A stretch of 64,000 bases of DNA from a virus, in IMG/VR virus record IMGVR_UViG_3300037461_000726, positions 2,973 to 66,972 of that record. One strand, 5' to 3'. Shown here piece after piece: positions 4,754-47,627 of the stretch (the stretch's first letter is position 1; each line of letters opens with the position of its first letter). The notes below the pieces were generated by a model. That model saw only the letters and a list, made by a program, of their open reading frames with translations, was not told where the DNA came from and ran no database searches. Both the position numbers and the translations under genes were made by a program.

Positions 4754-4776
4754 AATCTCTAATCTCCTTTTTATTT

Positions 4777-7338: not shown

Positions 7339-7356
7339 CTTCGTTCTCCTTAATTT

Positions 7357-7877: not shown

Positions 7878-7894
7878 TTAAAATAACGTATATT

Positions 7895-8545: not shown

Positions 8546-8562
8546 AATTTCAACTATCCTTT

Positions 8563-8901: not shown

Positions 8902-9071
8902 TCACGACATGCGTGATTATTAGGGTTAGTTCTACCGATAGTTTGTAACACCGGGTATTTATCCACTCCGTGAACAGGACAATGAAATTCGCTGCCTTTT
9001 TGTTTGTGGGTTTTTGGAGTGTAAATTACAACTTCTTCCATTTTTTTACCGCATTTACTACAATAAGCCAT
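8874..9071 (-). CDS. Zn-ribbon hypothetical protein
   Basis: CSKC...CPVH; translationally coupled. Confidence 0.5.
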   Translation of the reverse strand: MAYCSKCGKKMEEVVIYTPKTHKQKGSEFHCPVHGVDKYPVLQTIGRTNPNNHACRDWGTILKEG

Positions 9072-9468: not shown

Positions 9469-9646
9469 TTGTCAATGTTTCCCAAAACATCTGTCTCATC
9501 TTACGCTCTTCTTTATCTTCTTTTTCATGCGCACTTAGTGACTTGTCAATTATCATGGGATTTTGCATACGAGCCTTTAACCATTTTGCTTCGTTCTCGT
9601 CAAGAACCAAAGTTACCCGTACTTCCTTTTTAACTTCTGTTTTCAT
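9455..9646 (-). CDS. Hypothetical protein
   Basis: RBS (ggagga), coupled ORF. Confidence 0.5.
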   Translation of the reverse strand: MKTEVKKEVRVTLVLDENEAKWLKARMQNPMIIDKSLSAHEKEDKEERKMRQMFWETLTIENI

Positions 9647-9658
9647 AAATCCTCCTTT

Positions 9659-10039
9659 TTATTCTCCTATTTTAAATTTCTTTATCAATGTTCCTACTGG
9701 AACATGAAGCTCAAACTTGCCCTCACTGTTCCTATAAACACTTCCATCTTGCTCATCATACATGGCCGAATAAAGCATATACGGGGAATTAGAATCTTCA
9801 ACGATAATAGTTTCATCGGCATCAAGTTTGACTAATTTATATTTATTAGCAGATATGTTTTTATACACATAATAATAAGTTGTTTGACCTATGTTCCCGC
9901 AACCAATGATAAAATCACCTTTAATTTCGTTCTTTTGGGATAATGACGAAATATCAATTTTAAATTGTTTTTCCTTCCACCCATTTTGAACACACCCTAA
10001 AACCAATAACGCTAACAACAAACAAATTGTCCTTTTCAT
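9659..10039 (-). CDS. Putative lipoprotein
   Basis: MKRTICLLLALLVLGC lipobox-like signal peptide. Confidence 0.55.
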   Translation of the reverse strand: MKRTICLLLALLVLGCVQNGWKEKQFKIDISSLSQKNEIKGDFIIGCGNIGQTTYYYVYKNISANKYKLVKLDADETIIVEDSNSPYMLYSAMYDEQDGSVYRNSEGKFELHVPVGTLIKKFKIGE

Positions 10040-10044
10040 CTTAT

Positions 10045-26669: not shown

Positions 26670-27335
26670 ATGCAAGAGGGCCAGACATCAGAGTATAAGC
26701 AACAGCTCCTTCCTTTACCGGGACTCTACGTGAAAGAGTGGGTCCCGGACCGTAAGTGTCTTACGTCATTGAAAAAGTGCATACCTCAGAGAACGAAGGA
26801 CAAATGCAAGTATTGGGCTCCAGATAAACTGTGTCCATATCATATGCTGAATACCAACACCGGGGAACAAGTCAAAGTAGAAACTCCAGTCAGTCAAATC
26901 TTCGATGAAAAACGAAACGAACAACGATTACAGCAACTTATAAAGATAAGGCCATCCGATGGTGTTAAGGTTGTGTACGTAACGAAGGCCTTACCTCAGT
27001 TCAATGAAGCCCTGATATACAAGTTCAATCCGGAAATCCACAAGTTCAACGCTGCCACGGAAGATTTCTGGTATGTCGGGTATCCTGACATTCTGAAATT
27101 CTGTGATAAATATTTTCATATCAACAACCAAGATTCGATAAGGGAATGGACAAAGATTTACGCTTTCCCATTACGAAAGTTCCCTAACAAGACTCCTTTT
27201 TTAATCGTAATTGAAGCGGTGCAGTGGGCAATTACCTACAGCAACATGGTTAAAAAAGAACTTGAAGAAATGAAAAATGAGATGGCTGGGGAATTAAAAG
27301 ACCGCTATGGTTTTGTTATAACTAGAGGACATTGA
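26670..27335 (+). CDS. Hypothetical protein, first gene of the rightward arm
   Basis: RBS agagga; 221 aa. Confidence 0.6.
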   Translation: MQEGQTSEYKQQLLPLPGLYVKEWVPDRKCLTSLKKCIPQRTKDKCKYWAPDKLCPYHMLNTNTGEQVKVETPVSQIFDEKRNEQRLQQLIKIRPSDGVKVVYVTKALPQFNEALIYKFNPEIHKFNAATEDFWYVGYPDILKFCDKYFHINNQDSIREWTKIYAFPLRKFPNKTPFLIVIEAVQWAITYSNMVKKELEEMKNEMAGELKDRYGFVITRGH

Positions 27336-27712
27336 AAATGGCAACGAAAAAGAAAAAAGAAAAACCACTGTCTCAGTTGATGAAGGAAATAGGAACGGAA
27401 GCCAATGATTCGGGCAGAATGCTCGTATTGAAGGAATGTGAAAAGGCTGGCATCACGATACCTAAAGTATTAAAGGGAATCGCTGAGGGAATGGAAGCAA
27501 AGGAAGTAAAAGTCACATATTCCGCACAAGAGAGTGAATGGCAATACAGCGAAGAGCAAATTGCATGGCAGATAAGACAGGCCGCGCTCAATCAGGCAAT
27601 AGCGGTATTGGGTATCAAGGCACCGGAAAAGATAGACAGTAAGATAAAGGCCGATGGTCCCATTACTTTTCAAGTGGAATTTGACAGTAAACCAACTGAT
27701 GATGGTAAATGA
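27332..27712 (+). CDS. terS: Probable terminase small subunit
   Basis: Directly upstream of TerL; 126 aa; C-terminal EKID...ITFQVEF. Confidence 0.55.
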   Translation: MKMATKKKKEKPLSQLMKEIGTEANDSGRMLVLKECEKAGITIPKVLKGIAEGMEAKEVKVTYSAQESEWQYSEEQIAWQIRQAALNQAIAVLGIKAPEKIDSKIKADGPITFQVEFDSKPTDDGK

Positions 27713-28986
27713 TGAATAACACGTACAAGGTAGTTTTTCCTGATTATCGCAAGCACCCTGACCAGAATGAATTTGTAGAGTGCGATGCGAAGCGTATCAT
27801 CATCAGAGCAGGAAGACGTGGCGGTAAGACTGTAGGCGCGGGTGCAAGAGCAGCCCGTTCATTTTTGAAGAAAAGAAGGATTCTGTACGCAGCCCCTACA
27901 GCAGACCAGACTGAACGATTTTGGGTCACGGTAATGAAAATCTTCCAGGACCCAATAGACCGTAAGATTCTGTATAAGAATGAAAGTGAACGTGTGTTAG
28001 AGGTTCCCGGCACTGAAATACGAATCAAGGCAAAGACAGCATGGAACGCTGACACATTACGTGGTGACTATGCAGATGACCTTATCCTTGATGAGTGGCA
28101 GTTAACGAATGAGGAAGCTTGGGGGCTGGTTGGTGCACCGATGCTCCTTGACAATAACGGGAATGCAACGTTCATATACACACCGCCATCACTACATTCA
28201 CGCAGTACGAGCAAAGCGCATGACCCGCAACATGCAAGCAAGCTGTTTAAAAAGGCCCAGGAAGAGGAAGCGCTTGCACTGAAAGAAAATAGGCCATCGC
28301 GATGGAAGACTTTTCACTTTTCCAGCGATAAAAATCCGTTTTTAAGTAGAGAGGCCCTTGGCGATATTACGAAGGACATGACCAATTTAGCTTATCGGAT
28401 GGAGGTGCTGGCTGAAGATGTAAATGAAGCGCCGGGCGCATTGTGGACAAGGGAAACGATTGAAAAGAACCGGGTAATGAAGGTGGACACCGATTATGAT
28501 AGACTGGTCGTGGCAATCGACCCTTCAGCAACGAGTGAAGGTGACGAAGCCGGGATAGTTGCAGCCGGTAAGATTGGTGACCATGGATACATAATCGCGG
28601 ACGTTTCAATACAGGGAAGCCCTTTGACATGGGCGCAAAAAGCAATTGATTTGTACAGAAGCTTAGGTGCTAACTGCATAGTGGCCGAGTCCAATCAAGG
28701 TGGAGAAATGATAAGCACCATTATCAGTGGAATCGACCCTCAAATAATGGTAAGTTTGGTCCACGCAAGCAGGGGTAAACAGACAAGAGCGGAACCGATA
28801 GCGGCCAAATATGAGCAGGGATTCGTTCATCATGTAAATAGTTTACCGGCGCTGGAAGACGAAATGTGCTTATGGATTCCCGGTGACAAATCGCCAAATA
28901 GGATGGATGCACTGGTGTGGGCTTGTGCAGAATTGAAGCTTGAAGGAAAAAGTGGCACATCATTCGCCGCTTTCATGGGGGAATAG
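27709..28986 (+). CDS. terL: Terminase large subunit
   Basis: Walker A RAGRRGGKT, LRG...LILDE, nuclease VVAIDPS, SPNRMDALVWA. Confidence 0.93.
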   Translation: MMNNTYKVVFPDYRKHPDQNEFVECDAKRIIIRAGRRGGKTVGAGARAARSFLKKRRILYAAPTADQTERFWVTVMKIFQDPIDRKILYKNESERVLEVPGTEIRIKAKTAWNADTLRGDYADDLILDEWQLTNEEAWGLVGAPMLLDNNGNATFIYTPPSLHSRSTSKAHDPQHASKLFKKAQEEEALALKENRPSRWKTFHFSSDKNPFLSREALGDITKDMTNLAYRMEVLAEDVNEAPGALWTRETIEKNRVMKVDTDYDRLVVAIDPSATSEGDEAGIVAAGKIGDHGYIIADVSIQGSPLTWAQKAIDLYRSLGANCIVAESNQGGEMISTIISGIDPQIMVSLVHASRGKQTRAEPIAAKYEQGFVHHVNSLPALEDEMCLWIPGDKSPNRMDALVWACAELKLEGKSGTSFAAFMGE

Positions 28987-33170: not shown

Positions 33171-34505
33171 ATGCTTACGAAAGACGTAACGATAAAAAAC
33201 GGAATGGTAAGAACCAAGGACGATGAAGGTGACGGCACCGTTGTCCATAATGACGGCAATTATCATGTGGAACAGGGACCGGGGCCTTTCTTTTACGTGT
33301 TCAAGGGCAGTGAAGAAATCGACATGTGTAGCACCCTTGAGATAGCGAAGAAGGTAATCAGCGAAGACAAGGGAACGAAGGATGCCGAAGAGCAGACGAT
33401 TGGAAATTACAACGGGTACAAGATGGTCTTCACTGGTGGTTTTCTCAGGGCGCAGGAAGATGGATTTACGAAGTTTGAAGTCCTGTCATCGATGGGTGCC
33501 GGTGGATGGACACAGGCCGATGTAAAGAAGCTGATGGACAAGATAGACTCAAGGGAAAAGTACGGAGTGAGGGATGACGAGGCCTATAGACGATATACGA
33601 TAAGGAAAGAGGGCGATTTGTGGTATCCTTATCATAAGGATGTCAGGACCGGGCAAATAACAAAAGGGAGCGGATTTCCTTCTTTGGAAGCGGTAAAGAA
33701 AGCTCTGGACAAATATTCGGATTATCAAGTAGAATATGACAATCCTGAGTTGTATAAGGGAAAGCCGAGCAAGCCGTTCGCAATAGATGCCATATCTTGG
33801 GATGTTGTAAAGAGCGGAACCACCAGCGGTGTAAAATGGGAAATTTCGCATGATAAAAGCGATGACAGCTATAAAATAGTCTCGGTGGGGGAAAAAGGAA
33901 CAAAGAACATAAATTATTCCCTTTCCTTATCTGATGCCGAAGGTAAGGTTGCAGATGCGGTCAAATTGTTAAGCTACGTGGACGGCCCGCAAAAATATTC
34001 CAAGCAAAGGGATGCCATGTCAGTAAACGAGTATCAGAATAAGATGCAGGAATTGCGTAACAAGGCAAGGGAAGCGCGAAACAGGGGCGACATGAAGGAG
34101 TTCGATAAAATTTCCGAAGAAATAACGAAGTTGAATAAGGAATCGGAAACGAAAGATAGTAAAGTGGGGTTTAGAATCGAAAAAACCAAAAACGGAAAAT
34201 TAATTTCTTCGGTCTCTTTCGAAGTGGAAGAGGAAAAAGAAGCAATTGAAAAAGCAGTTGAAGCAAGTAAAGACGGTAATGGTATGACAGTTTTGTATAG
34301 GGGCAATTCTGTTGTATGGAAAAGAGGAACAAAGGATAAGCAGTGGATACAGATAAAGATTACCTTTCAGAACGGCGAAGTGTGGGAACAGAATTGGGAC
34401 CATTCTCTTGAAGATGCGAAGGGTTATTACATGGGTGGCGAGTTCAATCTTGGTCACGGGGACGGTAAAACATCCAAGGTCGTTAAAGTTGAAGAAATAA
34501 GGTAG
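33171..34505 (+). CDS. Modular xKD-linked polyprotein 3
   Basis: Leader MLTKDVTIKNGMVRTKD; 7 modules ending in GTKD/VRD/AID/QRD/ETKD. Confidence 0.7.
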   Translation: MLTKDVTIKNGMVRTKDDEGDGTVVHNDGNYHVEQGPGPFFYVFKGSEEIDMCSTLEIAKKVISEDKGTKDAEEQTIGNYNGYKMVFTGGFLRAQEDGFTKFEVLSSMGAGGWTQADVKKLMDKIDSREKYGVRDDEAYRRYTIRKEGDLWYPYHKDVRTGQITKGSGFPSLEAVKKALDKYSDYQVEYDNPELYKGKPSKPFAIDAISWDVVKSGTTSGVKWEISHDKSDDSYKIVSVGEKGTKNINYSLSLSDAEGKVADAVKLLSYVDGPQKYSKQRDAMSVNEYQNKMQELRNKAREARNRGDMKEFDKISEEITKLNKESETKDSKVGFRIEKTKNGKLISSVSFEVEEEKEAIEKAVEASKDGNGMTVLYRGNSVVWKRGTKDKQWIQIKITFQNGEVWEQNWDHSLEDAKGYYMGGEFNLGHGDGKTSKVVKVEEIR

Positions 34506-34940
34506 ATGGTTATGTTATTTTCCAATTTGAAAATTGAAAAGGGTCAGGTAATCGCGAAGGACCATGATGTGGCCGGTTCCATCGTGTATCAGGGTTTGCC
34601 GATTACGATTGAGAACGAAGAAGGTTCAATCAGGAAATGGAAGAACCAAGAGGGCGAAAAGGGCAAGACCGAGATGTTCTATCGTTACGGCTACATCGAT
34701 GGAACGATTGGCGTTGACGGCGAGGAAATCGATTGCTTCATCGGCCTAAATCCCTATGCTTCCAACGTATATGTAATCAGGTTGGGGAAGGATGACCGGG
34801 AGGAAAAGGTCATGCTTGGGTTTGACAGCAGGGAGGCCGCAAGAGATGCGTTTCTTGCGCATTATCAGGACCAGAGTTTTTTAGGTGAAATTACGGAAAT
34901 GCCGATGTATCTTTTTAAGGACACGCTGGAGTTTAAATAA
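34506..34940 (+). CDS. Inorganic pyrophosphatase-like (InPase) domain protein carrying the shared leader
   Basis: MLFSNLKIEKGQVIAKD then ITIENEEGSIR...YGYIDGTIGVDGEEID.F.G...EEKVMLGF. Confidence 0.75.
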   Translation: MVMLFSNLKIEKGQVIAKDHDVAGSIVYQGLPITIENEEGSIRKWKNQEGEKGKTEMFYRYGYIDGTIGVDGEEIDCFIGLNPYASNVYVIRLGKDDREEKVMLGFDSREAARDAFLAHYQDQSFLGEITEMPMYLFKDTLEFK

Positions 34941-37900
34941 TGGCTAAGCAGACGAAGAAAAACATAGTTACCAAGGATAAACTTACGCAGGACTCGTTCA
35001 CCAATTTTCTTGCAAAGATTGGTGTCGGTACTGATAACTTAAGTTCATATTCTACGTACAGCCTTAACAACCTGATTTCCAGAAACAGGACGTTGCTTGA
35101 GGCCGCCTATAGGAGCTCGTGGCTCGTAGGAATTTCTGTAGATGCGATTGCTGAGGACATGACTCAGGCAGGCATTACCATGGGCTCCGAGATGGAACCC
35201 GATAACATAAAGAAGCTCCATGTCGCGATGAACGATTTCATCATCTGGAGTGCATTGTGTAGTACGATTAAATGGTCCCGGTTATACGGCGGTGCCATTG
35301 CAGTCATTCTGATTGACGGCGCGAAGTATGACGAGCCGTTAAATCTGAACGCCATCGGCAAGGGTACTTTCAAGGGATTGTTGGTGCTGGACCGCTGGAT
35401 GTGTGAACCTTCCCTTGGCGAATTGGTTGACGATTTAAACAAGGATTTCGGTAAGCCGAAGTATTACAAGATACACACTTCAGTTGGAAATGCCAAGCTG
35501 CCCCGGATAAGGGTCCATTACTCAAGGATATTGAGATTTGACGGGATAGAACTTCCCTTTTATCAAAGGCTGTATGAAAATCATTGGGGCCTGTCTGTTG
35601 TAGAGCGCCTTTATGACAGATTGCTGGCCTATGATTCGGCCACGTTGGGCGCGGCTCAGTTGTTGTCCAAGGCCAGCTTGCGAACGATAGGGGTTAAGAA
35701 TTTAAGAGCAGCGTTAGCGCTTGGCGGGAAGGAAGAAGCTGCAGTAATCAAGCAGTTCAATTACATACGGCAGATGCAGAGCAACGAAGGAATAACGTTA
35801 CTTGATTCTGAAGATACGTTTGACATCAAGAGAAGCTCCTTTGATGGAATAAGTGATTTGCTCGTTCAATTCGGGCAACAGATTTCCGGTGCCACTGGCA
35901 TTCCGTTGGTCAGATTATTTGGCCAGTCACCGTCAGGATTTAACGGCGGTGAAACCGATTTACGAAATTACTATGATGGAATCAAGAGGCTGCAGGGTAA
36001 TGTGTTAAAGGACCCATTGTTGAAGGTGCTTGAAGTTATGTCGGCTTCCATACTTGAGCAGAGACTCCCTGAGGACTTTGAAATCGAATTCAATTCGCTG
36101 TGGCAAATGAGTGACAAGGAAAAGGCAGAACTTAATACATCCGATTCCTCTGCTATACGAGAAGATTATGGCGCGGGAATCATAACCAAGGAATTGGCGC
36201 TGAAGGAAAAATTACAATCATCGAGAACAACTGGCCGGTACACGAACATCACTGAGGAAGACATTGCACAGGCGAAAATCGATGATGAAAATAAGCCCCC
36301 GGAAGGTGGAACTCCGGGAATGCCGCCAAGCGGCGTAGGTGAGGAAAATCCGTTGGGTGCCGGGGAAGAGAGTACGTCAAGCGGCATAGAGGAAAAACCG
36401 AAAGAGGGAATTTCCTTAGAGAGCACGTCACCGGAAAAGGAACAGAGCAAGGAAATCAAATCTCCCATAGAAGGAGTGGAATCATCAATCAATGAAAAGG
36501 AGCAGGAATCAAAGAGAGGACTCGATTTCAAGGCGATAAGAGATAAGATGTTCGCCGCAAGGAAGTACATAAGGGATAAGTTCTTCGGGGATGATTTTAA
36601 GGGCGGCATGGGCTCAGCCGGGTATTCAGGGTATTGGACAGCCAACAACCCGGAAGCTTACATGGAATTTAGAAAGATGCACCCGGAAAAGATTGACGGT
36701 AAATTGATGGACTCTTGGATTAAAGGGTACGCCGGTTATTCATCCGGGTCAAACACGGAGTGGTTTAATAAAGGAGCCAATTACCGGAGAAAAGGGACTG
36801 AGGATGCCGATTTTGAAGAGTCCAAGCACCCAAGGGGAAATCCGCAAAACGCCGGTCAATTTTCATCCGGTGGAGGTGGCGGCGCAAAGAAGGAAGAGAA
36901 ACCCACAAAGAAGGAAGAAAAGGCCCCGGCTGAAAGCAAAAAGCCGCAGGGCGTGTTTAAAGAAGGAATGGACATCCCGGAGGAAGGAAGAAATGTTTCA
37001 GCAGTAAAGTTGGAAGATGGAACAGTTTATTACGACACCAAGGCCATGATTCACGCCGACATGCTGGAAAACAACCCGGACATTCCCGCCGATAAAATTG
37101 TTGACGGCGGTTTTATTGTAAACGGTAAGTATGTAAGCGGCAGCGCGAACGCAAAGGGAATCGGGGAACAGGCAAAGGCAAAGAAGATAGTGGAAGGGTT
37201 GACATCTGGTTCTTCCGTTAAGTTTGTAAAGATGGATAACCTTGATAAAGTAAAAGTAAAGACGATTAATGAGGCTGGGTTATCGGAACAGCAAATTAAA
37301 AAGGTGCTTTCCTTTGACGGTTACGACACTGAAGTTTTTTATGATTTCCCGAAGCGAATGCCCGGTGTTACTTATGTAGTGGCTACGGCCATCGGCAAGG
37401 GCGAGACTGCGACAAAGGGAAAGGAAAAGGATGTAATTGAAACCACTTTTTCAGTGGATAATGACAAGCCTGATGACTTACATCTTGATTTCATGGAGGT
37501 GTACGGCAGTAAAAACAAGGGAATAGCCAAGGCTTACCTTGACCGAATTGAACAGTATGCGCGGGAAAATGGAAAGAAGACAATATCGTTGCTTGCGGAC
37601 ATTTCCATTGGCCGTTATGCGTGGGCCAAGATGGGATTTAAGGCTGACCAAGAGACGGTTGACCGTTTGAGGAAAGAGCTGATTGTTCACGCTTCAAACG
37701 TATTAAAGATGAAGTACGGCGGCACCAACGAATTTGGAAAGAAAAGACGGGAATTGATTACGGCCATAGAACCCCTTAAGAGTGTTGAGGAGATTGCAGA
37801 TTTTGAGTTTCCCGACACTGAATACACTGCGAAGGAATTGACCGATTCTAAAGGTTTTCATAATAATGATGTTCCAATGGACATGAAATTGAAAGTCGGG

Positions 37901-38161
37901 AAGTCCTTCCTATTGAACAGTAAGGGGGGATTAGAAAATGACTGGCATGGAACCCGCGAAGTCAAGAAAAAGACCGGGGATAGTCTGGGAACGCTCCTAT
38001 ATGGAGAGTTGGAGACGAAAGATGCGGAAGGCGAACCGACAAGGATGTTATTGTTTACAAATGAAGAACGCGGAACAAAAGAAGGTGAAACCGATATCGA
38101 GTTTCATAAAGACATTTTATTTGCTGATTCTGAGAAGGAAGTAAATGCCAGCAAAGAATAA
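34940..38161 (+). CDS. Portal protein (DUF1073 type) with about 600 aa C-terminal extension containing a GNAT-like module
   Basis: Y..SW..G..VD..AEDM, W.RLYGGA, TG.PL..LFGQSP.GFN..G..D..NYYD; then FEESKHPR..GQF and GIAKAYL..GRYAWAKMGF. Confidence 0.88.
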   Translation: MAKQTKKNIVTKDKLTQDSFTNFLAKIGVGTDNLSSYSTYSLNNLISRNRTLLEAAYRSSWLVGISVDAIAEDMTQAGITMGSEMEPDNIKKLHVAMNDFIIWSALCSTIKWSRLYGGAIAVILIDGAKYDEPLNLNAIGKGTFKGLLVLDRWMCEPSLGELVDDLNKDFGKPKYYKIHTSVGNAKLPRIRVHYSRILRFDGIELPFYQRLYENHWGLSVVERLYDRLLAYDSATLGAAQLLSKASLRTIGVKNLRAALALGGKEEAAVIKQFNYIRQMQSNEGITLLDSEDTFDIKRSSFDGISDLLVQFGQQISGATGIPLVRLFGQSPSGFNGGETDLRNYYDGIKRLQGNVLKDPLLKVLEVMSASILEQRLPEDFEIEFNSLWQMSDKEKAELNTSDSSAIREDYGAGIITKELALKEKLQSSRTTGRYTNITEEDIAQAKIDDENKPPEGGTPGMPPSGVGEENPLGAGEESTSSGIEEKPKEGISLESTSPEKEQSKEIKSPIEGVESSINEKEQESKRGLDFKAIRDKMFAARKYIRDKFFGDDFKGGMGSAGYSGYWTANNPEAYMEFRKMHPEKIDGKLMDSWIKGYAGYSSGSNTEWFNKGANYRRKGTEDADFEESKHPRGNPQNAGQFSSGGGGGAKKEEKPTKKEEKAPAESKKPQGVFKEGMDIPEEGRNVSAVKLEDGTVYYDTKAMIHADMLENNPDIPADKIVDGGFIVNGKYVSGSANAKGIGEQAKAKKIVEGLTSGSSVKFVKMDNLDKVKVKTINEAGLSEQQIKKVLSFDGYDTEVFYDFPKRMPGVTYVVATAIGKGETATKGKEKDVIETTFSVDNDKPDDLHLDFMEVYGSKNKGIAKAYLDRIEQYARENGKKTISLLADISIGRYAWAKMGFKADQETVDRLRKELIVHASNVLKMKYGGTNEFGKKRRELITAIEPLKSVEEIADFEFPDTEYTAKELTDSKGFHNNDVPMDMKLKVGKSFLLNSKGGLENDWHGTREVKKKTGDSLGTLLYGELETKDAEGEPTRMLLFTNEERGTKEGETDIEFHKDILFADSEKEVNASKE

Positions 38162-39047
38162 AAATAGAGTTTTCAATTACACGTTAACTCAACGAATCGA
38201 GCAGGATTATGGGCGCGATTTGTATAACGTCAGTCGTGAAGTGGATAGAATCGTTACTGACTTTACGAATAAGCTTGATAAGAGCGCCGATAAGATTGAA
38301 GTTGAAGATGTCGGTGATTTGATTGAAAAACTGCAGGAATATAGTGAAAAGATAAACGATTGGGCAAATAAGTCGGCGAGCAGAATGATAGGAAGCTTGC
38401 AGAAACAGGAATTGAAGCAATGGGAGCAACATTCCGAAAAGATGTCAACCTTGATGAAGCAGGAACTAACAAAATTTGACGTTAACAAGGCGATGAAGCA
38501 ATATTTGGCTGATAATGTTCATTTGATTACTTCCTTACCGTTAACGGCTGCACAAAGAGTGCATGATATTGTATATAACAACCTGACTACGGGAAAAAGG
38601 GCTTCAACTGTGGCCGCTGAAATCATGAACACCGGAAAGGTTACACAGGCAAGAGCCAATCTAATCGCGAGAACGGAAACGGGCAGGGCAGTGACCGGGT
38701 TGATAAAGGTCAGGTCCGAGTCTGTAGGGATTGATTGGTTCGTATGGAGAACCACCCATGACAGGAGATTGAGGACGGCCCATAAGTTGATGGATGGCGT
38801 TCTTGTAAAGTGGTCTGACCCTCCTTCACCGGAAAAACTTTTTGCGGGAAGGGCAAAGGATGTAGGCAAGCCGTATGGGAACTATTTACCTAATGCAACG
38901 TTTAATTGCAGATGTTACCCGGCACCATTAATAAGACTGGATGATGTGTCATGGCCCGCAAGAGTTCATAGGAACGGTAAGATAACGACAATGAATAAAG
39001 AACAGTTTCAAGGACTGACAAAAGACGAATATAGGTTGGCAGCCTAA
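38145..39047 (+). CDS. Minor head protein (MuF / SPP1 gp7-like)
   Basis: RANLIARTETGRA, WRTTHDRRLRTAH..MDG, FNCRCYP. Confidence 0.9.
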   Translation: MPAKNKNRVFNYTLTQRIEQDYGRDLYNVSREVDRIVTDFTNKLDKSADKIEVEDVGDLIEKLQEYSEKINDWANKSASRMIGSLQKQELKQWEQHSEKMSTLMKQELTKFDVNKAMKQYLADNVHLITSLPLTAAQRVHDIVYNNLTTGKRASTVAAEIMNTGKVTQARANLIARTETGRAVTGLIKVRSESVGIDWFVWRTTHDRRLRTAHKLMDGVLVKWSDPPSPEKLFAGRAKDVGKPYGNYLPNATFNCRCYPAPLIRLDDVSWPARVHRNGKITTMNKEQFQGLTKDEYRLAA

Positions 39048-39061
39048 TACAGGAGGACAAA

Positions 39062-41191
39062 ATGTTACTGCATCAAATCAAAGACATCAAGGGTGGGAGA
39101 ATTTTAACGAATGACACGGTTTCGAAGGACGCTGAAAGTAGTTGGAAAAGTGAATTAAACCATTTGAAAGATAAGTTGGAAAAGGCAAAAAGAGATAATG
39201 ACCAATCGGAAGTCGAAAGACTAAAAGATGAAATCCGCACATTGGAATCTGGTGGAGAATTTCCGATAGCGGATGCCGTTTCTTCCTTCGGTACCAAGTC
39301 CTTTTCAAAAGAAGAATTGATAAAGAAGGCGAAACAGGGCGAATTTGAATTTACTTCGGACCCGAAGCCGAGACAGCACATCGAAATCCGATATCCTGAT
39401 GGAAAGAGGGAAATGGTGTGGGTGGAAGATGCGAAGATGAAAGATTGGGGTCCCGATTTTGTAACTCCTCTTCCGCAGGGAAAGGAAGTTAAAATCACCG
39501 GTGGAGCTTATGAGGGAATGCGCGGTACGGTAGTTATGGGCGGGAACACTGAAACCAGAGTAAAGGTTGACGGTGGGAACGTAACCGTAATAGACAATAA
39601 GTGGCTTAATACTCTGGATTCAAAGATGAAGGACAGCGTTTCCATTTTGACCAGTCAGGGCGATTATGATGTGGAAATCATGGACAGCACTCATTTGAAG
39701 TTCAAGTTGAAGGGACGGGATAATTGGGCCACGCCTTTGCATTTCAATCAGGTCCCGGAAGAAATGATGAGCAAGTTAAAGGATAAGGGGCTCGTTGAGG
39801 GAAACTTTTTTAAGGATGCCGAACCGGACCCGGATGAAAAGATAGCCGAGCTTGAGGACAAGGCAGCCAAGGCAAAGGCGCAGGGTTACTCAGCAGATGC
39901 CTATGAAGAGGAAATTAAAAAGATAAAGGAAACAAAAGATGATGCCTACACCGAAAACAGAATTAGTTCTGTGAAAAAAGAAATTGAAAAAGTAAAAGAA
40001 AAGGCACAATTGGAAGGTGGTTATAAATGGAATACACGAAATGAATTGGACCGATTAGAAGGTGAATTGAAGCAATTAGAGGGGAATAGAAAAACTTCAA
40101 ATGACTCAAAATCAGAAGAAGCTTATGATGAAGGGTATGAAGCCGCATTAGCTGGCAAACCATCTTCCGCAAACCCATACACAGATGTTTCAAAGGCTGG
40201 CTACGCCGATTTGAAAGACTCTTGGAATGATGGGCATATGGATGGGCAAAAAGAAGTAGCAAATAAAGTGTTTAAGAAAGATTCTAAAACAAAGGACCGT
40301 CAATTTGACCTTGGCAGCGGCACCCTTGGAAATGGGATTACGGTGTGGAATAGGGCAAGGGAAATAGGCGGCGATTATGAAAGGATTGCCCATATCGGTC
40401 CCGATAGGAAAGTTACATGGTACATTTCCAGCCCGCCGTCAGAAGTAGTTAGTTATGTAAACGGCATCGTTAACGGGCCGAACATGGCAGTTTCCACAAG
40501 TCAGCCGTACATGAAGGTGTTCAATGATTCAAAGATGAAAGATGATTTGACACAGCCATTGTCGGTTGAAGAAATAAAATTTTTATTCCAAAATATAGAC
40601 CCTGCTTATGCTAAAATGCTTTCTGGAGTGGTTACTTCCAAGCAAATGGCAGTACAAAAAGGTTTGGCTGTTGGGTTAAAATTGTCTTCTGAGGGAATGC
40701 AGTTCAAAGATTCTAGGCCTGTTAAAGATGATTTTACTTCCAAATCGTCCCTGCAGACTGAACTTGAATATGCAAAGGAAGATTTAAGAAAGTCAGAGAA
40801 AAACGGCGATGCCCGGCTGATAAAGGAAGCGCAGGATTACGTGGACCAAGTGACTAAGGCCATACGGGAATGGAAAGAACCGGTGAAAGACTCTCCGCGT
40901 GATACGATTGAAAAGAAAATAGCGGATATCGAAGACAAGTTGGATAAGGCGCGGCAGAGTAAAAATAGTTCCTTAATTGCTCAGCTCCAGGATGAACTGG
41001 ATAAGCTTGAGGAAAAGAGGGAAGAATTAAGTGAAGATTCATCCGATGTTCTTACTCTTGACCCCTTGACTGCCAAGGGCGAGAAGATAATGGAAAACAT
41101 GAAGGAACAGTACGGGGAAAAGAAGGGCGAACAAGTTTTTTACGCTTCGCGCAATAAGGGAACGATAGGTGGTGTGGACCCGGAAAGCTGA
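39062..41191 (+). CDS. Modular xKD-linked polyprotein 4
   Basis: Leader MLLHQIKDIKGGRILTND; about 12 modules, DSK(M/T)KD double linkers; KOW-like, Rmf-like (AYDEGY..G..NPY..W.DG), helical hairpins, C-terminal PLTAKGEKI..YG.KKGEQVFYAS. Confidence 0.7.
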   Translation: MLLHQIKDIKGGRILTNDTVSKDAESSWKSELNHLKDKLEKAKRDNDQSEVERLKDEIRTLESGGEFPIADAVSSFGTKSFSKEELIKKAKQGEFEFTSDPKPRQHIEIRYPDGKREMVWVEDAKMKDWGPDFVTPLPQGKEVKITGGAYEGMRGTVVMGGNTETRVKVDGGNVTVIDNKWLNTLDSKMKDSVSILTSQGDYDVEIMDSTHLKFKLKGRDNWATPLHFNQVPEEMMSKLKDKGLVEGNFFKDAEPDPDEKIAELEDKAAKAKAQGYSADAYEEEIKKIKETKDDAYTENRISSVKKEIEKVKEKAQLEGGYKWNTRNELDRLEGELKQLEGNRKTSNDSKSEEAYDEGYEAALAGKPSSANPYTDVSKAGYADLKDSWNDGHMDGQKEVANKVFKKDSKTKDRQFDLGSGTLGNGITVWNRAREIGGDYERIAHIGPDRKVTWYISSPPSEVVSYVNGIVNGPNMAVSTSQPYMKVFNDSKMKDDLTQPLSVEEIKFLFQNIDPAYAKMLSGVVTSKQMAVQKGLAVGLKLSSEGMQFKDSRPVKDDFTSKSSLQTELEYAKEDLRKSEKNGDARLIKEAQDYVDQVTKAIREWKEPVKDSPRDTIEKKIADIEDKLDKARQSKNSSLIAQLQDELDKLEEKREELSEDSSDVLTLDPLTAKGEKIMENMKEQYGEKKGEQVFYASRNKGTIGGVDPES

Positions 41192-41218
41192 TTTATAAAA
41201 CATTCTTAGGAGAATAAA

Positions 41219-41476
41219 ATGTTACTTCATCAAATTAAAGATATAAAGAACGGCAGAATCATTGCCAAGGATGAAGATATTAATATCAACATCACTATCG
41301 AGAAGCCCGTGAATGAAGAAGAACAAGTGACCTATCCCTTTGAATATAAGGGATATACTTTAAAGCAGAATGAAGAAGACGGGTCAATTGAAGTGTATGG
41401 AAACGGCGGCAGTTTCCTTAAACGATGTGAAGATTTAAAAATAGCAAAAGATTTTATCGATAGGTCAGTGGTGTAG
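41219..41476 (+). CDS. Single-module cargo-like protein with the shared leader
   Basis: MLLHQIKDIKNGRIIAKD; EYKGY...AKDFID module. Confidence 0.7.
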   Translation: MLLHQIKDIKNGRIIAKDEDININITIEKPVNEEEQVTYPFEYKGYTLKQNEEDGSIEVYGNGGSFLKRCEDLKIAKDFIDRSVV

Positions 41477-41479
41477 AAG

Positions 41480-44400
41480 ATGGCAGAAGTAACACCGGCA
41501 AATGAAGAGCTTGCGCAAGAATACACAAGGGTAAATCCCAAGGACCAGCCCTTAAAGTATCTTCATCAAGACGGTTCAGTAACCGAAGAACTCCCTGTGT
41601 CTATTGTGGGGGACTTTGTTGTTACGGGCGGTGCCACATCAGCTAAACAGGACGAGCAAACAGAGTTGCTTTCTCAAATCCTTGAGAAGGACACCAATAT
41701 CTCTATCGATGCCGAAGAAATAAACTTAAACACCGATGAGTTGGAAGATAATCAAGTTAATGGAAGTCAAAAAACTCAGGTTGTAGATGGTTCAAATACA
41801 AATGTCGATTTTGCGACATCCGCGAAGCAGTTGCCTGACAATCATCAGGTAGAAGTATCAAACATGATACCCGCCGTTGAGACTGGTTTAGCTACTTCCG
41901 CTAAACAACTTGCAGACGGCCATAATGTAAACGTAAGTAACATGATTCCTGCAGTTGAGACTGGTTTAGCTACTTCCGCTAAACAACTTGCAGACGGCCA
42001 TAATGTAAACGTATCAAACATGATACCCGCTGTTGAGACCGGGTTGGCCACATCAGCCAATCAGACTAACGGAACTCAGAAAGTCCAAGTAGTGGACTTT
42101 GAGATGGAAGATATAACCAAGTACAATCCTTTTATCGTTGACACCGGGGCTTCTCTTTATGCCACAGACATAAATCCAGACCTTTCTGAGTCAACAGGCT
42201 GGGAGGGGGACCTTCTGGATTTGTTCAAGGATTTAGATGACGGTTTGTATAACGATAATGTTACCAATCCTAAAGTTATATTGTTGATGTTCTACAGAAC
42301 GTTATATTTGAATGCAATAGGGTTGGGTTGTGCCATTACGGATAAATATTTTAGTAATATCAAGTTTGAATTTATAGGGAGTGATGGAACAGTTCGCTCG
42401 ACATTTGATGATTCTGCGAATAACACAAAGTATGGAACAAGGTTATATCAGTTTGCTTCCGTTGCTTGTGTCGGCATTAGAATTTCTGTTTGCACTGCTA
42501 ACACTGATGTAGGCCTTACAAATGTAACAGTTCGTAAAAGAATAGCAGCGGATGTGGGTCTTGAGCAGATTACTCAGAATGGTGCATTGGCAGCACTGAA
42601 TGCTATAGTGGAAATCAATTTGTCTAATGCCTGTGGTACTTGTGTTTTTCAAGTATCGGGTACTTGGAAAGGAAAGATTCTTATAGAAGGGGCCGTTGAC
42701 GGAACATATAATAATCTAAGCGTGGTTCAGCCTCAGGGAACGATTGTTACCGCCGGAATAAATAATGATAACATGAACGGTGTTTACCGTATTCTGATGA
42801 CAGCAGGTTATACCAAGCTCAGATTGAGAATGTCTGCTTATACAGAAGGAACGGCTTCTGTTGTGATGAATGCTTCTCCTTTGGTGCCAACAGTTTATGC
42901 TTGGCAACTGAACGCGGCTAATTTATTGGCAACAGTAACACAGTCTACGCCTGACTGGAGAAGCACATTGGTGGACTCGACAGGAGAACCAATAACCGCA
43001 ACTGTTGATGGGTCAACAAGCCCGGAAAAGAATGCTCTGGATGTTAACGTAGTAAATCAAGGTGATGTAGGAAACACAAATATTACAGGGAACGTAGCCC
43101 GTACTTCTGCAGTAAATAGTAAATCAGGATTGACAGCATTGCAAGCATGGGAAGGAAGTTTTGAAGCAACAGATAATTATAGTGCTATTCAGTTGTTTGT
43201 TTATTTTAATAAAGCTGTAAGAGTTTATGTTGACCAGAGCGTTGATGGGTTAACAGCTCAATTGACAGATGATTGGATTGTACCAGCCAGCGAAGCATTT
43301 ACCGAAGTAATAAGGAGCGATGCTCCTTTTTACCGAGTGAGAGTGACCAATTTGGAAAATGCAGTAGCAACGGGAGACATGGCTTCTGCATTGACCCCGA
43401 TAATAAATCCATTGCCTAGAAAGCTTGACCACAATGGTAGTTTAATTATTGGCAGTATGATAGACGAGTATGGCTTTTCCTGTGAGAACACCCCGCAGGG
43501 GGAATTGAGAACGGTAACTCCATTTAGAATAGTCGGTGCTCAAATGGAAGGGGTTGGAGCAGCTGGAGCAGTTGACCCAAATTATTGGGCTTCCATAAAT
43601 GATGCAACAGCAGGTCCGGGCTCTGTAACAGTGGCAAATTCTCTTTGTTCAATAAACTCTGGAACCAATGCTGCCTCATTCGCCAAGTTGGTGTCTAATA
43701 GAAGAGCAAGGTATGTTACAGGATACACAAATCGGTTTAGAGGAAATTTCAGAACGCCAACAAATCAGGACAATAATACCAAGAGATGGGGAATAGGTGT
43801 TTATTCTAATTACACCTTTACGATAGCTTCATCTACATTGGTTGTTGGGGATGTGTATTCTAATAACGGTCAATACTTTACCGTCATGCAGCCTGTCACA
43901 GCAGGAACTACAGTTTATATGTTTGGAACTGGAGCTCCTTCAGCAGCGCCGCAGACATTAACCAAAGTGTCAGGAGCAACAGCAAGTCCAGCAACAATAG
44001 CTTATTCGGCATTTGCGGTAGAATGGACTTTATCAGATGGAGCAGTGTTTCAAGTGTCAGGGTCTGTGTTCTCTCTGGCCTTATATAAAAACGGGGTTGT
44101 CACTCCCATTACAAGTTTCAATGGTCATCTGGGAATTAGTTATTCATTGAATACGAATGTTCACACCTATGAAATATATTACACCAATGTAAATGTGTAC
44201 TTTGTTGTTGATGGAGATGTTCTTCATACTTATACGGCTTCCACTACAGGCTGGGCAGCAACAATGAATTTCCACATTATTGCTTCAAGCATAAATTCAG
44301 GTAACACCATCAACACTATATTGGGATTGAGGAACGCTGCTATTCATAGGTTGGGTCAGCAATCAACACAACCAACAATATATTATCATCCTAGTGGTAC

Positions 44401-44650
44401 CACCACAGGAGTTGTTCTGAAGTATGGAGCGGGGAATATAAGAGGAATAGTAATAGGAAGTGGGTCTAATGGGTCAGTTATAACTCTTTATGATGGATTG
44501 AATAGTTCGGGAAGAGTTATGTTTAGCCTTAATGTGACTAATTTAACTACTGCTCCTGTTGACCTTCCCTTATACGATGTTCCGTTTTCTATGGGCTTGA
44601 CGTTGACAGTAACAACACAAAATTCAAGTGTAACCGTTATTTATGAGTGA
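41480..44650 (+). CDS. Large putative virion structural protein with 26-aa tandem repeats
   Basis: Thr/Ser/Val/Asn-rich beta-type sequence; ATSAKQL.D.H.V.VSNMIPAVETGL x3. Confidence 0.6.
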   Translation: MAEVTPANEELAQEYTRVNPKDQPLKYLHQDGSVTEELPVSIVGDFVVTGGATSAKQDEQTELLSQILEKDTNISIDAEEINLNTDELEDNQVNGSQKTQVVDGSNTNVDFATSAKQLPDNHQVEVSNMIPAVETGLATSAKQLADGHNVNVSNMIPAVETGLATSAKQLADGHNVNVSNMIPAVETGLATSANQTNGTQKVQVVDFEMEDITKYNPFIVDTGASLYATDINPDLSESTGWEGDLLDLFKDLDDGLYNDNVTNPKVILLMFYRTLYLNAIGLGCAITDKYFSNIKFEFIGSDGTVRSTFDDSANNTKYGTRLYQFASVACVGIRISVCTANTDVGLTNVTVRKRIAADVGLEQITQNGALAALNAIVEINLSNACGTCVFQVSGTWKGKILIEGAVDGTYNNLSVVQPQGTIVTAGINNDNMNGVYRILMTAGYTKLRLRMSAYTEGTASVVMNASPLVPTVYAWQLNAANLLATVTQSTPDWRSTLVDSTGEPITATVDGSTSPEKNALDVNVVNQGDVGNTNITGNVARTSAVNSKSGLTALQAWEGSFEATDNYSAIQLFVYFNKAVRVYVDQSVDGLTAQLTDDWIVPASEAFTEVIRSDAPFYRVRVTNLENAVATGDMASALTPIINPLPRKLDHNGSLIIGSMIDEYGFSCENTPQGELRTVTPFRIVGAQMEGVGAAGAVDPNYWASINDATAGPGSVTVANSLCSINSGTNAASFAKLVSNRRARYVTGYTNRFRGNFRTPTNQDNNTKRWGIGVYSNYTFTIASSTLVVGDVYSNNGQYFTVMQPVTAGTTVYMFGTGAPSAAPQTLTKVSGATASPATIAYSAFAVEWTLSDGAVFQVSGSVFSLALYKNGVVTPITSFNGHLGISYSLNTNVHTYEIYYTNVNVYFVVDGDVLHTYTASTTGWAATMNFHIIASSINSGNTINTILGLRNAAIHRLGQQSTQPTIYYHPSGTTTGVVLKYGAGNIRGIVIGSGSNGSVITLYDGLNSSGRVMFSLNVTNLTTAPVDLPLYDVPFSMGLTLTVTTQNSSVTVIYE
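41813..42060 (+). repeat. 78-bp in-frame tandem repeat, about 3 copies
   Basis: gttgagactggtttagctacttccgctaaacaacttgcagacggccataatgtaaacgta occurs twice identically, with diverged flanking copies. Confidence 0.9.
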
Positions 44651-44658
44651 GGAAAGAA

Positions 44659-46143
44659 ATGAATAGATTTTATACTTCAGAACAGATAAGTGAACACATA
44701 TCGGAAACCCCGGAAGGGTTTTGGATAGCTGAGGACGTTCCGGTTGCAAAAATCGGGGAACAGACCTATAAGGCCGATGAAGTGCCTATTGAGCCAAATG
44801 ATAGTGGGCTGGTTTTAATTAAAAGACGTGAGGAAGAAGTGTTTAATCCCGATGCTATCAAGAGCTTTGAAGGTAAGCCGTTTACGATAGACCACCCGGA
44901 CGAAATGGTGACACCGGAAAATTGGATGCAGTTGGCCCATGGGTTCATTACCAATGTTCGTAGAGGTATAAAGGAAAAAGCCGACCTTCTTGTTGGTGAC
45001 ATCGTTATCACGACAAAGAAGGCAATTGAACTTGTAAAAAATGGGATGCGTGAAATTAGCTGCGGATATGATGCCGATTACGAACAGCTTGAAAAGGGGG
45101 TAGGTATTCAAAAAAATATAATTGGCAATCATATTGCCCTAGTTATGAAAGGTAGAGCGGGAAGTAGATGTGCAATTGGTGACAAAGATTGTAACCATTG
45201 TGGAAATTGTAAGAATCACAATAATAAAATAGAGGAGGATGATGATGCTATGAAATTTAAAGACAAGTTGAAAGCAGCTTATCGCAAACTCGTCAAAGAT
45301 GAGGATTTTGAGAAATTGCCTGATGACGAAAAAGCAGATAAGCTTGCAGAAACGGCGGTTGATGCCGTTGAGGAAGAGGGCAATTTGGGAGAACAACCTC
45401 TCGAAGAGAAGCCTCTTGAAGAGAAACCGATTGAAGCAAAGGACGAGGGAGAAGGCGAAGATAAGTTGGATAAGGTTATTCGTCTTCTTGAAATGCTTCT
45501 ATCTTCGAATCAGGAAGTCATGGATTCTATTAGCGGGAAAGTTAAGGATGAAGGAGAAATGCCCGCCGAAGTGAAGGAAAAGATAGAAGCGAAAAAGGAA
45601 GAGAAAGTTGAAGATTGTCTGGAACCGGAAAATAAGCCTTTCGTTAACAAGGATGAAGGTGAAGGCGGCACTTTAGGTGGCACCCCGTCAGGGTCGATGA
45701 TAAAGAAACCGATTATGTCGCCGGGAGTGTCCGATGAAGAAGACCCGGACGATAAAGAAGAACGCGAAAAAACGGAATCCAAAGACTGTGATTCGGTCTG
45801 GATGGACGTAGCTTACAGGGCCGATTTGCTTCTCCCCGGCATCCGTCTGACGAAACCGACCAAGGACCACAAGATTCGGCTGGAATCAATCAAGAGAAAA
45901 GCTCTTACCGGCGCGTATACTGCTGATTCGGAAACGGTGAAATTGGCCATCGGTAATCATGGCATCGAATCACTCAGAGGCGAAGCGCTGGATATAGCAT
46001 TTCTGGCCGCATCGAATGCCGTCAAAGAGAAAAACAACAAGTTTGTAAGGGACTCTGTTGTGAGTAACACGAATGAAGTTGCTTCTGAGATTAGAAGCAT
46101 GAACGAAAAACACAAGAAATTTTGGAGCAAAGAAAACAAATAA
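44659..46143 (+). CDS. DUF2213 prohead protease/scaffold protein
   Basis: TPEG...DVPVA.IG...Y, SFEGKP.T..HP, EISCGYDA, GNHIALV..GRAG.RC.IGD; acidic scaffold tail. Confidence 0.85.
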   Translation: MNRFYTSEQISEHISETPEGFWIAEDVPVAKIGEQTYKADEVPIEPNDSGLVLIKRREEEVFNPDAIKSFEGKPFTIDHPDEMVTPENWMQLAHGFITNVRRGIKEKADLLVGDIVITTKKAIELVKNGMREISCGYDADYEQLEKGVGIQKNIIGNHIALVMKGRAGSRCAIGDKDCNHCGNCKNHNNKIEEDDDAMKFKDKLKAAYRKLVKDEDFEKLPDDEKADKLAETAVDAVEEEGNLGEQPLEEKPLEEKPIEAKDEGEGEDKLDKVIRLLEMLLSSNQEVMDSISGKVKDEGEMPAEVKEKIEAKKEEKVEDCLEPENKPFVNKDEGEGGTLGGTPSGSMIKKPIMSPGVSDEEDPDDKEEREKTESKDCDSVWMDVAYRADLLLPGIRLTKPTKDHKIRLESIKRKALTGAYTADSETVKLAIGNHGIESLRGEALDIAFLAASNAVKEKNNKFVRDSVVSNTNEVASEIRSMNEKHKKFWSKENK

Positions 46144-46652: not shown

Positions 46653-47627
46653 ATGTTGACATACGATAAATATACAATTGATAGTACGGGTGCTTTTCTT
46701 ATAGGAGAGCTCGAAAGGTTGGACCAAACTCTTCATGAGCCGCTTTTTAATGTGACTTGGACAAGAGACATCGATTTACGCGAAGACGTAAGCATTGCCG
46801 ATGAAGTGTCAAGTTTCACCAACAGTTCATTTGCAACTCCGGGCACTCCCAATTCCACCGGCAAAAACTGGATTGGTAAGGCTTCAAACGCCATTGCAGG
46901 GCCTTCTCTGGACATCGGAAAGACCAGTTCGCCCTTATATCTCTGGGGCATTGAGATTTCCTATACCATTCCTGAGCTGCTTTCTGCTCAGCAGATGGGC
47001 CGCCCGGTTGATGCGCAGAAATACGCAGCGATGCAGATTAAATACCAGATGGACATTGACGAAATGGTGTATATCGGCGATGATACGCTTGGCAAATACG
47101 GGTTGGTCAATTCAACATCGGTCACCGCATCCAGTGTAGCAACAGGGGCATTGGGAACAACCGCATGGACCACCAAAACTGCCGATGAAATTCTGGAAGA
47201 CGTAAACAGTCTCATTCAGACGGCTTGGGAAGCCGCTGCTTACGCAGTATGCCCTAGCAAGATTCTTCTTCCCCCCGCGCAGTTTGCGTACATTACCAGT
47301 CAGAAAGTTTCAACTGCTGGTAACGTTTCCATTCTTACCTTCCTTGAGGACAACAGCATTGCTCTCAAGATAAATGGCAAGAAATTGGACATTCAGCCCT
47401 GTAAGTGGTTGACTGGCCGTGGGACCCCTGCCGGTTCTCCCTCTGCTGCAACTGACCGTATGGTTGCATACACTCAGGATAAAAATCGCGTTCGTTATCC
47501 GTTGGTCCCGTTACAGAGAACGCCGTTGGAATACAGAAGTATTTACCATTTAACCACGTATTTTGGCCGGTTGGGTGTGCTTGAAATCGTATACCCCGAC
47601 ACGCTGTATTACGCCGATGGTATATAA
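46653..47627 (+). CDS. Major capsid protein (DUF2184 type)
   Basis: DSTGAFLIGELERLDQTL.EPL, EISYTIPEL..AQQ.GRP.D, DRMVAY. Confidence 0.9.
   Translation: MLTYDKYTIDSTGAFLIGELERLDQTLHEPLFNVTWTRDIDLREDVSIADEVSSFTNSSFATPGTPNSTGKNWIGKASNAIAGPSLDIGKTSSPLYLWGIEISYTIPELLSAQQMGRPVDAQKYAAMQIKYQMDIDEMVYIGDDTLGKYGLVNSTSVTASSVATGALGTTAWTTKTADEILEDVNSLIQTAWEAAAYAVCPSKILLPPAQFAYITSQKVSTAGNVSILTFLEDNSIALKINGKKLDIQPCKWLTGRGTPAGSPSAATDRMVAYTQDKNRVRYPLVPLQRTPLEYRSIYHLTTYFGRLGVLEIVYPDTLYYADGI

Follow-up and report, generated by a model that had tools for sequence, protein, structure and literature searches.

A GNAT-fold domain on the C-terminal arm of a phage portal protein, a candidate in-capsid cargo

Introduction

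Polyvalent proteins were defined by Iyer et al. 2017 (J Bacteriol, PMC5512222), who predicted that they are packaged and injected with phage DNA. The available text of that paper describes MuF and portal domains fused to the effectors InPase, PBECR and 2H, and it places two GNAT families in polyvalent proteins, one of them typically beside ART; embedded zincin-like MPTase domains are proposed there as the processing enzyme, without being required in every member. The concept of effectors anchored to the portal or to MuF is already published. The gene described here adds a GNAT passenger on the portal; it lies in a 64,000-nucleotide stretch of an uncultured phage genome (IMG/VR virus record IMGVR_UViG_3300037461_000726, positions 2,973 to 66,972), which is called the window below and whose coordinates are used throughout.

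Proteins also enter phage heads in other ways. In T4 the internal proteins and Alt carry a capsid-targeting sequence and are cleaved by gp21, and head proteins of phiKZ and SPN3US are cut by the prohead protease. The portal is present in 12 copies per virion, and the portal C-termini of phi29, SPP1, P22 and T4 point into the capsid. The crown and barrel formed by the portal C-terminus lie inside the head, adjoining the ejection proteins (PMC9728967). A phage GNAT with a host target has also been described: Rac of phiKMV, in its citation in PMC7824862, targets the alpha subunit of RNA polymerase.

Results

A portal protein with a long C-terminal arm

The source genome is a complete IMG/VR record of 92,375 bp with direct terminal repeats. 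The gene occupies 34940..38161 on the + strand and consists of a single uninterrupted open reading frame (ORF) of 3222 nt, encoding 1073 residues that comprise a portal and a C-terminal arm, the candidate cargo carrier. The identity of the core (residues 1-506, 34940..36457, + strand) is clear. PF06381 (Phage_portal_3/DUF1073) matches residues 53-406 with E 7e-100 and 334.6 bits, far above the gathering threshold of 33.8 and across essentially the whole domain (profile positions 3-355 of 357), while phrog_146, the PHROG portal family, covers residues 1-506 (E 1.4e-133). The nearest solved structures are the myovirus portals of Pam3 (8hds, E 1.6e-27) and E217 (8fvh). Some 570 residues extend beyond this core. 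A first-pass annotation, read from the letters of the window, had called the gene a portal with a GNAT-bearing tail; PF06381 bears out the portal identity, and all of the strings that it quoted are present in the ORF translation where it placed them.

The portal-plus-GNAT architecture recurs in the independent metagenomic proteins P0002, P0003, P0005 and P0051. Tail identity to P0002 and P0003 is 67%, with the GNAT the best-conserved portion. Among GenBank phages, tblastn with residues 540-1073 found no match to the tail, megablast of window positions 34000-42000 found no match, and the matches to the portal core cover at most 44% of the protein. The separate, abutting portal and GNAT genes of a related locus, L003, might suggest that two genes have been wrongly joined here by assembly or gene calling. 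This is hardly credible, however, since the 3222-nt frame contains no stop and the fusion is seen in at least five independent contigs and in two portal families. A programmed frameshift yielding a short portal was considered and rejected, there being no slippery X-XXY-YYZ heptamer between residues 447 and 545.

The arm carries a GNAT-fold domain

The tail was divided into seven parts on the basis of its sequence, of alignments with homologues and of two AlphaFold models. The sixth, residues ~776-1010 (37265..37969, + strand), was assigned as a GNAT-fold domain with a helical insert, using a family profile together with an AlphaFold model. Both were needed because direct searches with the window's own copy stayed below threshold: on PF00583 the stretch scores 16.2 bits against a cut-off of 20.7 (E 0.013), a result that on its own speaks against the assignment, and direct searches of pieces of the tail against Pfam, NCBIfam and PDB sequences gave sub-threshold GNAT hints and chance matches (e.g. 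a metallo-beta-lactamase fragment). For the same reason the GNAT call of the first-pass annotation could not be taken at face value, and its support comes from the profile and fold work. The stretch on which that call was based lies at residues 847-900, and the range proposed for it, 37340-37960, is close to the limits given above.

A full HMMER scan with residues 690-1073 against 1.84 billion cluster representatives returned 145 matching representatives. An alignment of 36 short relatives with the window's domain (37 sequences) defines a family of ~230 residues. Its invariant positions (numbered as in the portal) are A886, G891, Y893, A894, W895, A896 and G899, and near-invariance is seen at F900, G987, K988 and W1002. 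Pfam GNAT models are matched by 8 of the 37 aligned short sequences (E up to 7e-6) and by 13 of the 36 longer multidomain relatives; the solo protein of L003 reaches 21.4 bits on the Pfam GNAT model and is thereby above the cut-off that the window's copy misses. Of the 55 PDB sequences matched by the family profile (E up to 1), practically every one is an acetyltransferase, the best match having E 5.5e-5. The family shows a motif-A-like consensus, Q-x-K/R-G-x-G/A, in agreement with the GNAT pattern Q/R-x-x-G-x-G/A between beta4 and alpha3. In the window's copy this motif reads K858-N-K-G861-I-A863: the glycine and alanine are kept and lysine takes the place of Gln/Arg at the first position. 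Motif-A glycine and alanine contact the pyrophosphate of coenzyme A (CoA), and the window's motif aligns with motif A of the serotonin N-acetyltransferase 7dai.

The AlphaFold (AF2) model of the domain, built on the family alignment, has a mean predicted local distance difference test score (pLDDT) of 79.9, with 90-98 in the core, and is assigned by its structural matches to the mixed alpha/beta GNAT fold, which is defined by a beta4-alpha3-beta5-alpha4 core and a returning C-terminal strand. The first-pass annotation had proposed structure prediction of the extension as a check, and the outcome bears out its call: a Foldseek search with the model gave GNATs throughout as its best PDB matches (E from 2.5e-3), and in an exhaustive VIA-align search the top 50 of 50 chains are GNATs, with Z 8.4-11.5 over model residues 24-240 and alignments of 101-144 residues at a root mean square deviation (rmsd) of 2.3-6.0. 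The family is set apart from textbook GNATs by a helical insert of ~100 residues, modelled between alpha4 and the last strands, and has its own conserved G-K-x-F/L and Trp motif. Among the structural neighbours are enzymes that acetylate protein N-termini or lysines, toxins that acetylate tRNA, and the anti-CRISPR AcrVA5. Their Z values are alike, and the fold therefore does not single out a substrate.

As far as prediction can establish it, the portal arm carries a genuine GNAT-fold domain with an intact CoA motif. That the domain might instead be a decayed, inactive remnant, and the tail tolerated baggage, would fit with the sub-threshold Pfam score of the window's copy and with the rarity of its relatives, which form clusters of only 1-3 members. 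Against this, the motif-A glycine and alanine and all of the family-invariant residues are retained, the core is modelled at high confidence, and it is the GNAT that is best conserved within a tail 67% identical to those of P0002 and P0003. We consider decay very improbable.

The remainder of the arm

The tail begins with an acidic, low-complexity linker rich in Pro, Gly, Ser and Glu (residues ~447-545, 36278..36574, + strand, read from the translation), which is poorly conserved and differs in length among the portal-GNAT relatives. It is followed by module 1 (residues ~546-622, 36575..36805, + strand), which belongs to no recognised family and ends at Asp622, within the sequence G-T-E-D (residues 619-622). 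No Pfam or NCBIfam match and no relatives were found for module 1; its model consists of low-confidence helices (pLDDT 40-64), and in P0002 and P0005 the region is swapped for unrelated sequence. Directly after Asp622 comes a junction tag found by motif search, F-x-E-x-x-H-P-R-x7-G-x-F, which occupies residues 623-641 (36806..36862, + strand) and is predicted to be disordered; the motif itself, F-x-E-x-x-HPR...GQF, lies at residues 625-641 (36815-36862). A linker of Gly, Lys and Glu (residues 642-668) leads on to module 2.

Module 2 (residues ~669-760, 36944..37219, + strand) is a small alpha/beta domain that is conserved and confidently modelled (pLDDT 84-97), with H704, D706 and a G-G pair among its invariant residues. 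A deep search of cluster representatives gave about 20 matches, in proteins of 81-3039 residues (P0004, P0010, P0030, P0095 and others), of which one carries the module with InPase and one with LPD38. The closest portal relatives, P0002 and P0003, lack it, yet it shares 79% identity with part of P0004, which has no portal domain; this distribution points to recent exchange of the module. Pfam gave no match to module 2 in the window's copy or in ten carriers, and fold searches returned a best Z of 3.4 (VIA), one uncharacterised protein (BFVD) and no usable match (ESM Atlas). Neither module 2 nor the GNAT family, with its ~145 cluster representatives, has a Pfam model.

The GNAT domain is followed by a C-terminal tail of low pLDDT, residues 1011-1073 (37970..38158, + strand), which contains three candidate sites: T-G-D|S (1012-1015, with D1014), T-K-D|A (1026-1029, with D1028) and F-A-D|S (1061-1064, with D1063), the bar marking the possible cut. 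P0002, P0003 and P0005 keep this segment, whereas P0029, P0051 and all of the solo forms lack it. All three of the candidate sites named in the first-pass annotation are present. The arm holds more than a linker and a GNAT domain: it also has a junction tag that is widespread, and another conserved module.

The domain recurs on other capsid proteins

Relatives of the GNAT domain were found in four settings. Some are solo proteins of ~260-340 residues, which begin either with a short hydrophobic leader and an HPR peptide or with a Gly-rich peptide, G-x-G-N-x-G-H-x-G-R-P-G. Others form the C-terminal part of MuF proteins (8 of the 36 multidomain relatives, by Pfam). A third group is fused to portals: in the comparison of portal extensions that had been proposed for checking the first reading, the GNAT stands at the C-terminus of seven PF06381 portals (P0001, P0002, P0003, P0005, P0022, P0029 and P0051) and also of two PF04860 portals, P0083 and a 1288-residue protein of locus L005. 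Finally, the domain occurs within proteins of up to 7601 residues carrying ART, InPase, LPD1, Tad3 or topoisomerase-IB domains, and LPD38 is also among the partner domains in very large relatives of the passenger modules.

The gene contexts examined (L002, L003 and L005) are all packaging or head modules. In L002 a solo GNAT gene lies between TerS and TerL. In L003 the order is TerL, portal and then a tagged solo GNAT that starts at the base after the portal stop; a second gene with an identical tag encodes a topoisomerase-IB-like protein. In L005 TerL is followed by the portal::GNAT fusion and then by an ADP-ribosyltransferase gene. In a quick FastTree phylogeny of 120 domain sequences, the solo, MuF-fused and portal-fused forms are intermixed, the nearest relative of the clade containing the window's protein is a solo protein, P0007, and branches with good support require that the PF06381 fusion arose at least twice. 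A tree made by a fast method and with many long branches is indicative only, and to that extent tells against leaning on it. Together these comparisons indicate that the GNAT domain is a mobile, swappable module of capsid cargo. Residues 623 to ~1010 of the portal are laid out like a leaderless solo cargo protein, so that the portal core and linker would stand in the leader's place.

As side observations on the tags, adjacent head-module proteins of one and the same foreign phage contig can start with a common tag. The GNAT and a topoisomerase-IB/ATLF-like protein of L003 (2656-3573 and 4092-5963) share the Gly-rich tag G-N-F-G-H-A-G-R-P-G, and in L004, a contig of high GC content, tags of the HPR or Q-P-R-W-P type stand at the start of at least six ORFs in the region 404 to 10588.

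The distribution also bears on where the enzyme might act. It could work in the producing cell late in infection, with the fusion serving only to secure co-expression and packaging being incidental. The late position of the gene would allow this, and cytoplasmic phage GNATs exist, phiKMV Rac acting on the RNA polymerase alpha subunit being one (as cited in PMC7824862). A portal, however, is made in small amounts and locked into assembly, and would be a poor vehicle for a cytoplasmic enzyme; moreover the domain recurs with capsid anchors (two portal families and MuF) and with leader or tag peptides. A late cytoplasmic role is accordingly rated improbable, and the reading of the portal as a carrier of cargo, as the first-pass annotation had it, is well supported by these comparisons.

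Junction tag, Asp sites and possible cleavage

The HPR junction tag is present as a single copy in the 92-kb genome. In a survey of 148 proteins, comprising the 145 matches of the scan and close relatives, 23 copies were found, at the N-terminus in solo GNATs and at domain junctions in polyvalent proteins, and in most of these an Asp lies 1-3 residues upstream of the aromatic residue of the tag. In five aligned portal-GNAT proteins D622, directly before the tag, is invariant even though the surrounding sequence has been replaced. After the GNAT, D1014 is kept in the four portals that have that region, as T-(G/K)-D|S in P0001, P0002, P0003 and P0005, the site being a canonical T-K-D in two of the four; in P0042 there is an A-K-D at a comparable place, read from the printed start. 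D1028 is only partly conserved; the four residues that follow at the T-K-D|A site (1026-1029) are identical to those at a site in ORF 29195.

A much denser pattern is seen in neighbouring genes. Six ORFs (29195, 30672, 33171, 34506, 39062 and 41219-41473) share an N-terminal leader of 17-18 residues ending in Asp, and between them contain 49 K-D where 23.9 are expected, 14 T-K-D against 1.1, and 27 K-D-[SADE] against 7.2; none of 2000 composition-preserving shuffles attained any of these counts. The strong enrichment of T-K-D in these leader-tagged genes makes it plausible that the arm is cut by the head protease of the module, a DUF2213-type protein (described below).

Several observations weigh on the other side. 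The portal tail shows no enrichment of Asp sites: it contains 3 K-D where 5.3 would be expected and 4 [KEGA]-D-[SA] where 2.1 would be, the latter count being attained by ~16% of shuffles. The case for cleavage therefore depends on a small number of positions, conserved in four or five sequences. F-A-D|S is absent from the relatives, P0005 and P0029 carry a different junction peptide in place of the HPR tag, and P0029 and P0051 end after the GNAT with neither downstream site nor tail, so that release at this end cannot be universal. A literature search on the specificity of DUF2213 proteases found no paper. Twelve uncut arms of ~60 kDa at the portal vertex might hinder packaging, which argues for cleavage and does not demonstrate it. 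Of the KD/ED sites to which the first-pass annotation drew attention, D622, D1014 and in part D1028 are thus conserved, but the number of such sites in the tail is no greater than expected by chance and F-A-D|S is not conserved. Its carrier model stands as regards the swappable module, while release of the arm through proteolysis by the DUF2213 protein is a plausible hypothesis.

Some of these observations would also suit an arm that stays uncut. The GNAT would then be tethered to the portal and work inside the prohead or head, on phage cargo (e.g. the N-termini made by the protease) or on another packaged component. Besides the lack of enrichment and the forms that stop right after the GNAT (P0029 and P0051), this would suit the many N-terminal acetyltransferases among the best structural matches (NatD, Naa80, Naa50, RimI and Ard1), and the P22/Sf6-type barrel shows that portal C-termini can be structural inside the head (PMC9728967). 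Alternatively, an uncut domain could be without catalytic function and fill the portal vertex as a plug or spacer, although conservation of the CoA motif speaks against a role that is structural only. On the other hand, the domain also occurs free and tagged, and in MuF and polyvalent fusions beside ART, TopoIB and 2H effectors, which fits delivered effectors better, and the invariant D622 precedes a tag that elsewhere starts mature-looking proteins, suggesting a cut. An arm that remains attached is, on balance, unlikely though by no means negligible, and release of the arm is the preferred reading.

The surrounding head module

The head module runs in the order TerL, several uncharacterised ORFs, a solo InPase, the portal, MuF, two large uncharacterised ORFs, DUF2213 and the major head protein. 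The leader-tagged solo InPase gene (34506..34940, + strand; PF18823, E 1.3e-31) has a stop that overlaps the portal start, and its N-terminal leader ends A-K-D. Downstream of the portal lies a MuF-like head morphogenesis protein (38145..39047, + strand; PF04233, E 2.3e-16; phrog_324, E 1.6e-57). The candidate processing enzyme is a head maturation protease/scaffold of the DUF2213 type (44647..46143, + strand; PF09979, E 1.3e-45; phrog_530 'head maturation protease', E 1e-52), and the major head protein is encoded at 46653-47627. T-K-D also occurs near the N-terminus of the portal, as I-V-T-K-D at residues 9-13 (34940-34978; P0002 and P0003 are similar), and near the C-terminus of MuF, as L-T-K-D at residues 292-295 (39018-39032); these two ends may be trimmed by the same protease.

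Some further features of the module were noted. The large terminase (27709-28986, 425 residues) aligns with the PHROG terminase profiles over their later part only and is preceded by two short ORFs with overlapping ends (26670-27335 and 27332-27712); the terminase encoded across 26670-28986 may be split or unusual. In the six leader-tagged ORFs, short S-K-T/M-K-D units often lie between modules, and the 85-residue ORF 41219-41473 almost exactly repeats the leader of ORF 39062. The latter, a leader-tagged ORF of 709 residues (39062-41191), contains an Rmf/CrpP-like segment at residues 345-396 (40094-40249), which scores 29.2 bits on PF04957 against a cut-off of 27.9 and falls below the cut-off of NCBIfam Rmf_CrpP. 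The idea that module 1 of the portal is such a unit was rejected, since a BLASTP comparison of the two matched no more than 9 residues (E 0.17). A protein of 1056 residues (41480-44650), encoded between the cargo genes and the protease gene, has about three tandem copies of a ~27-residue unit at residues ~110-195, A-T-S-A-K-Q-L ... V-S-N-M-I-P-A-V-E-T-G-L, and a weak Glyco_hydro_16-like stretch that is below cut-off (E 9e-4).

Discussion

The mechanism that we propose begins with the portal of a contractile-tailed 92-kb phage, whose C-terminus would be extended into a flexible arm consisting, in order, of linker, helical module 1, HPR junction tag, module 2 and GNAT domain. Since the chain ends of solved portals lie in a crown or barrel facing the capsid interior, the arm would be internal and present in 12 copies. 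The portal would thus stand in for the short N-terminal leader of other cargo, so that each prohead would receive a set dose of the GNAT, namely 12 copies. Cuts by the DUF2213 head protease after Asp622 and Asp1014 would produce a free, tagged acetyltransferase of ~392 residues, which would leave the head with the DNA and, early in infection, acetylate some macromolecule of the host, probably a protein. Taken as a whole, the explanation that the portal arm is in-capsid GNAT cargo, cut loose and ejected, is modestly favoured by the evidence.

Its last step is the more tentative. A host protein is preferred as the target because of the co-occurrence of the domain with ART and because of precedents such as phiKMV Rac, and we would put the chances of a host-protein target early in infection at somewhat short of even. 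A fuller version is more speculative again: the portal could be a stoichiometric loader, in which a lineage-specific Asp cut by DUF2213 before a pan-phage tag frees exactly twelve GNATs, to be ejected with the Z-base genome and to acetylate a protein of host defence or gene expression. If true, the combination of tag and site would amount to a general and apparently undescribed release rule for portal, MuF and polyvalent carriers, and if this grammar of tag plus Asp holds, the processing products of many uncultured phage cargo proteins could be predicted from sequence. As a single carrier with a single recognisable enzyme, a single tag and two conserved positions that are candidates for cutting, the present gene is a compact case in which the polyvalent hypothesis would be easy to test.

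The closest described relatives are the polyvalent proteins of Iyer et al. As in the available text on these, an effector enzyme is here fused to a capsid anchor in a head module beside MuF and InPase genes, and relatives of the GNAT co-occur with MuF, ART, InPase and LPD1. With portal, module 2 and GNAT in one ORF the present protein is a minimal example, having one recognisable enzyme, and two or three passenger modules compared to as many as 15 in the proteins of that account. It differs further in that the portal fusions named in the available text lack a GNAT. No peptidase domain was found in the portal ORF by Pfam, PHROGs or NCBIfam, in contrast to the embedded MPTase domains; instead there is a junction tag with a conserved Asp, and the terms 'HPR' and 'linker' have no occurrence in the available text of that paper (PMC5512222). 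In the literature searched, no paper beyond the Iyer/Aravind work was found to bring together a portal, a C-terminal extension and an acetyltransferase.

The genes around the portal resemble the packaged cargo of T4 and phiKZ in having a short N-terminal leader and a T-K-D-rich, multi-site pattern ending in an acidic residue. Unlike in T4, the protease is of the DUF2213 type rather than the gp21 family, and at the putative P1 position stands Asp in place of Glu. In the portal gene itself, moreover, a whole portal replaces the leader, and the cuts are predicted from sequence.

In its enzyme the system is like phiKMV Rac and AcrVA5, small GNATs used by phages or mobile elements against host proteins. 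AcrVA5 (PDB 6iuf) is among the VIA matches, with 88 residues aligned at Z 8.8 and an rmsd of 2.3, a match no better than those of dozens of other GNATs; there is no specific sequence kinship to either protein. Both are free cytoplasmic proteins, not anchored in a virion, and the helical insert and the G-K-x-F/L and Trp motif distinguish the present family from them. Finally, as for the portal barrel of P22 and Sf6, which extends into the capsid near the ejection proteins (PMC9728967), the C-terminal extension described here would project into the head. The P22/Sf6 barrel is a helix tube of ~70-130 residues, whereas the arm of the present portal runs to ~570 residues, made up of linkers and globular domains, one of them an enzyme.

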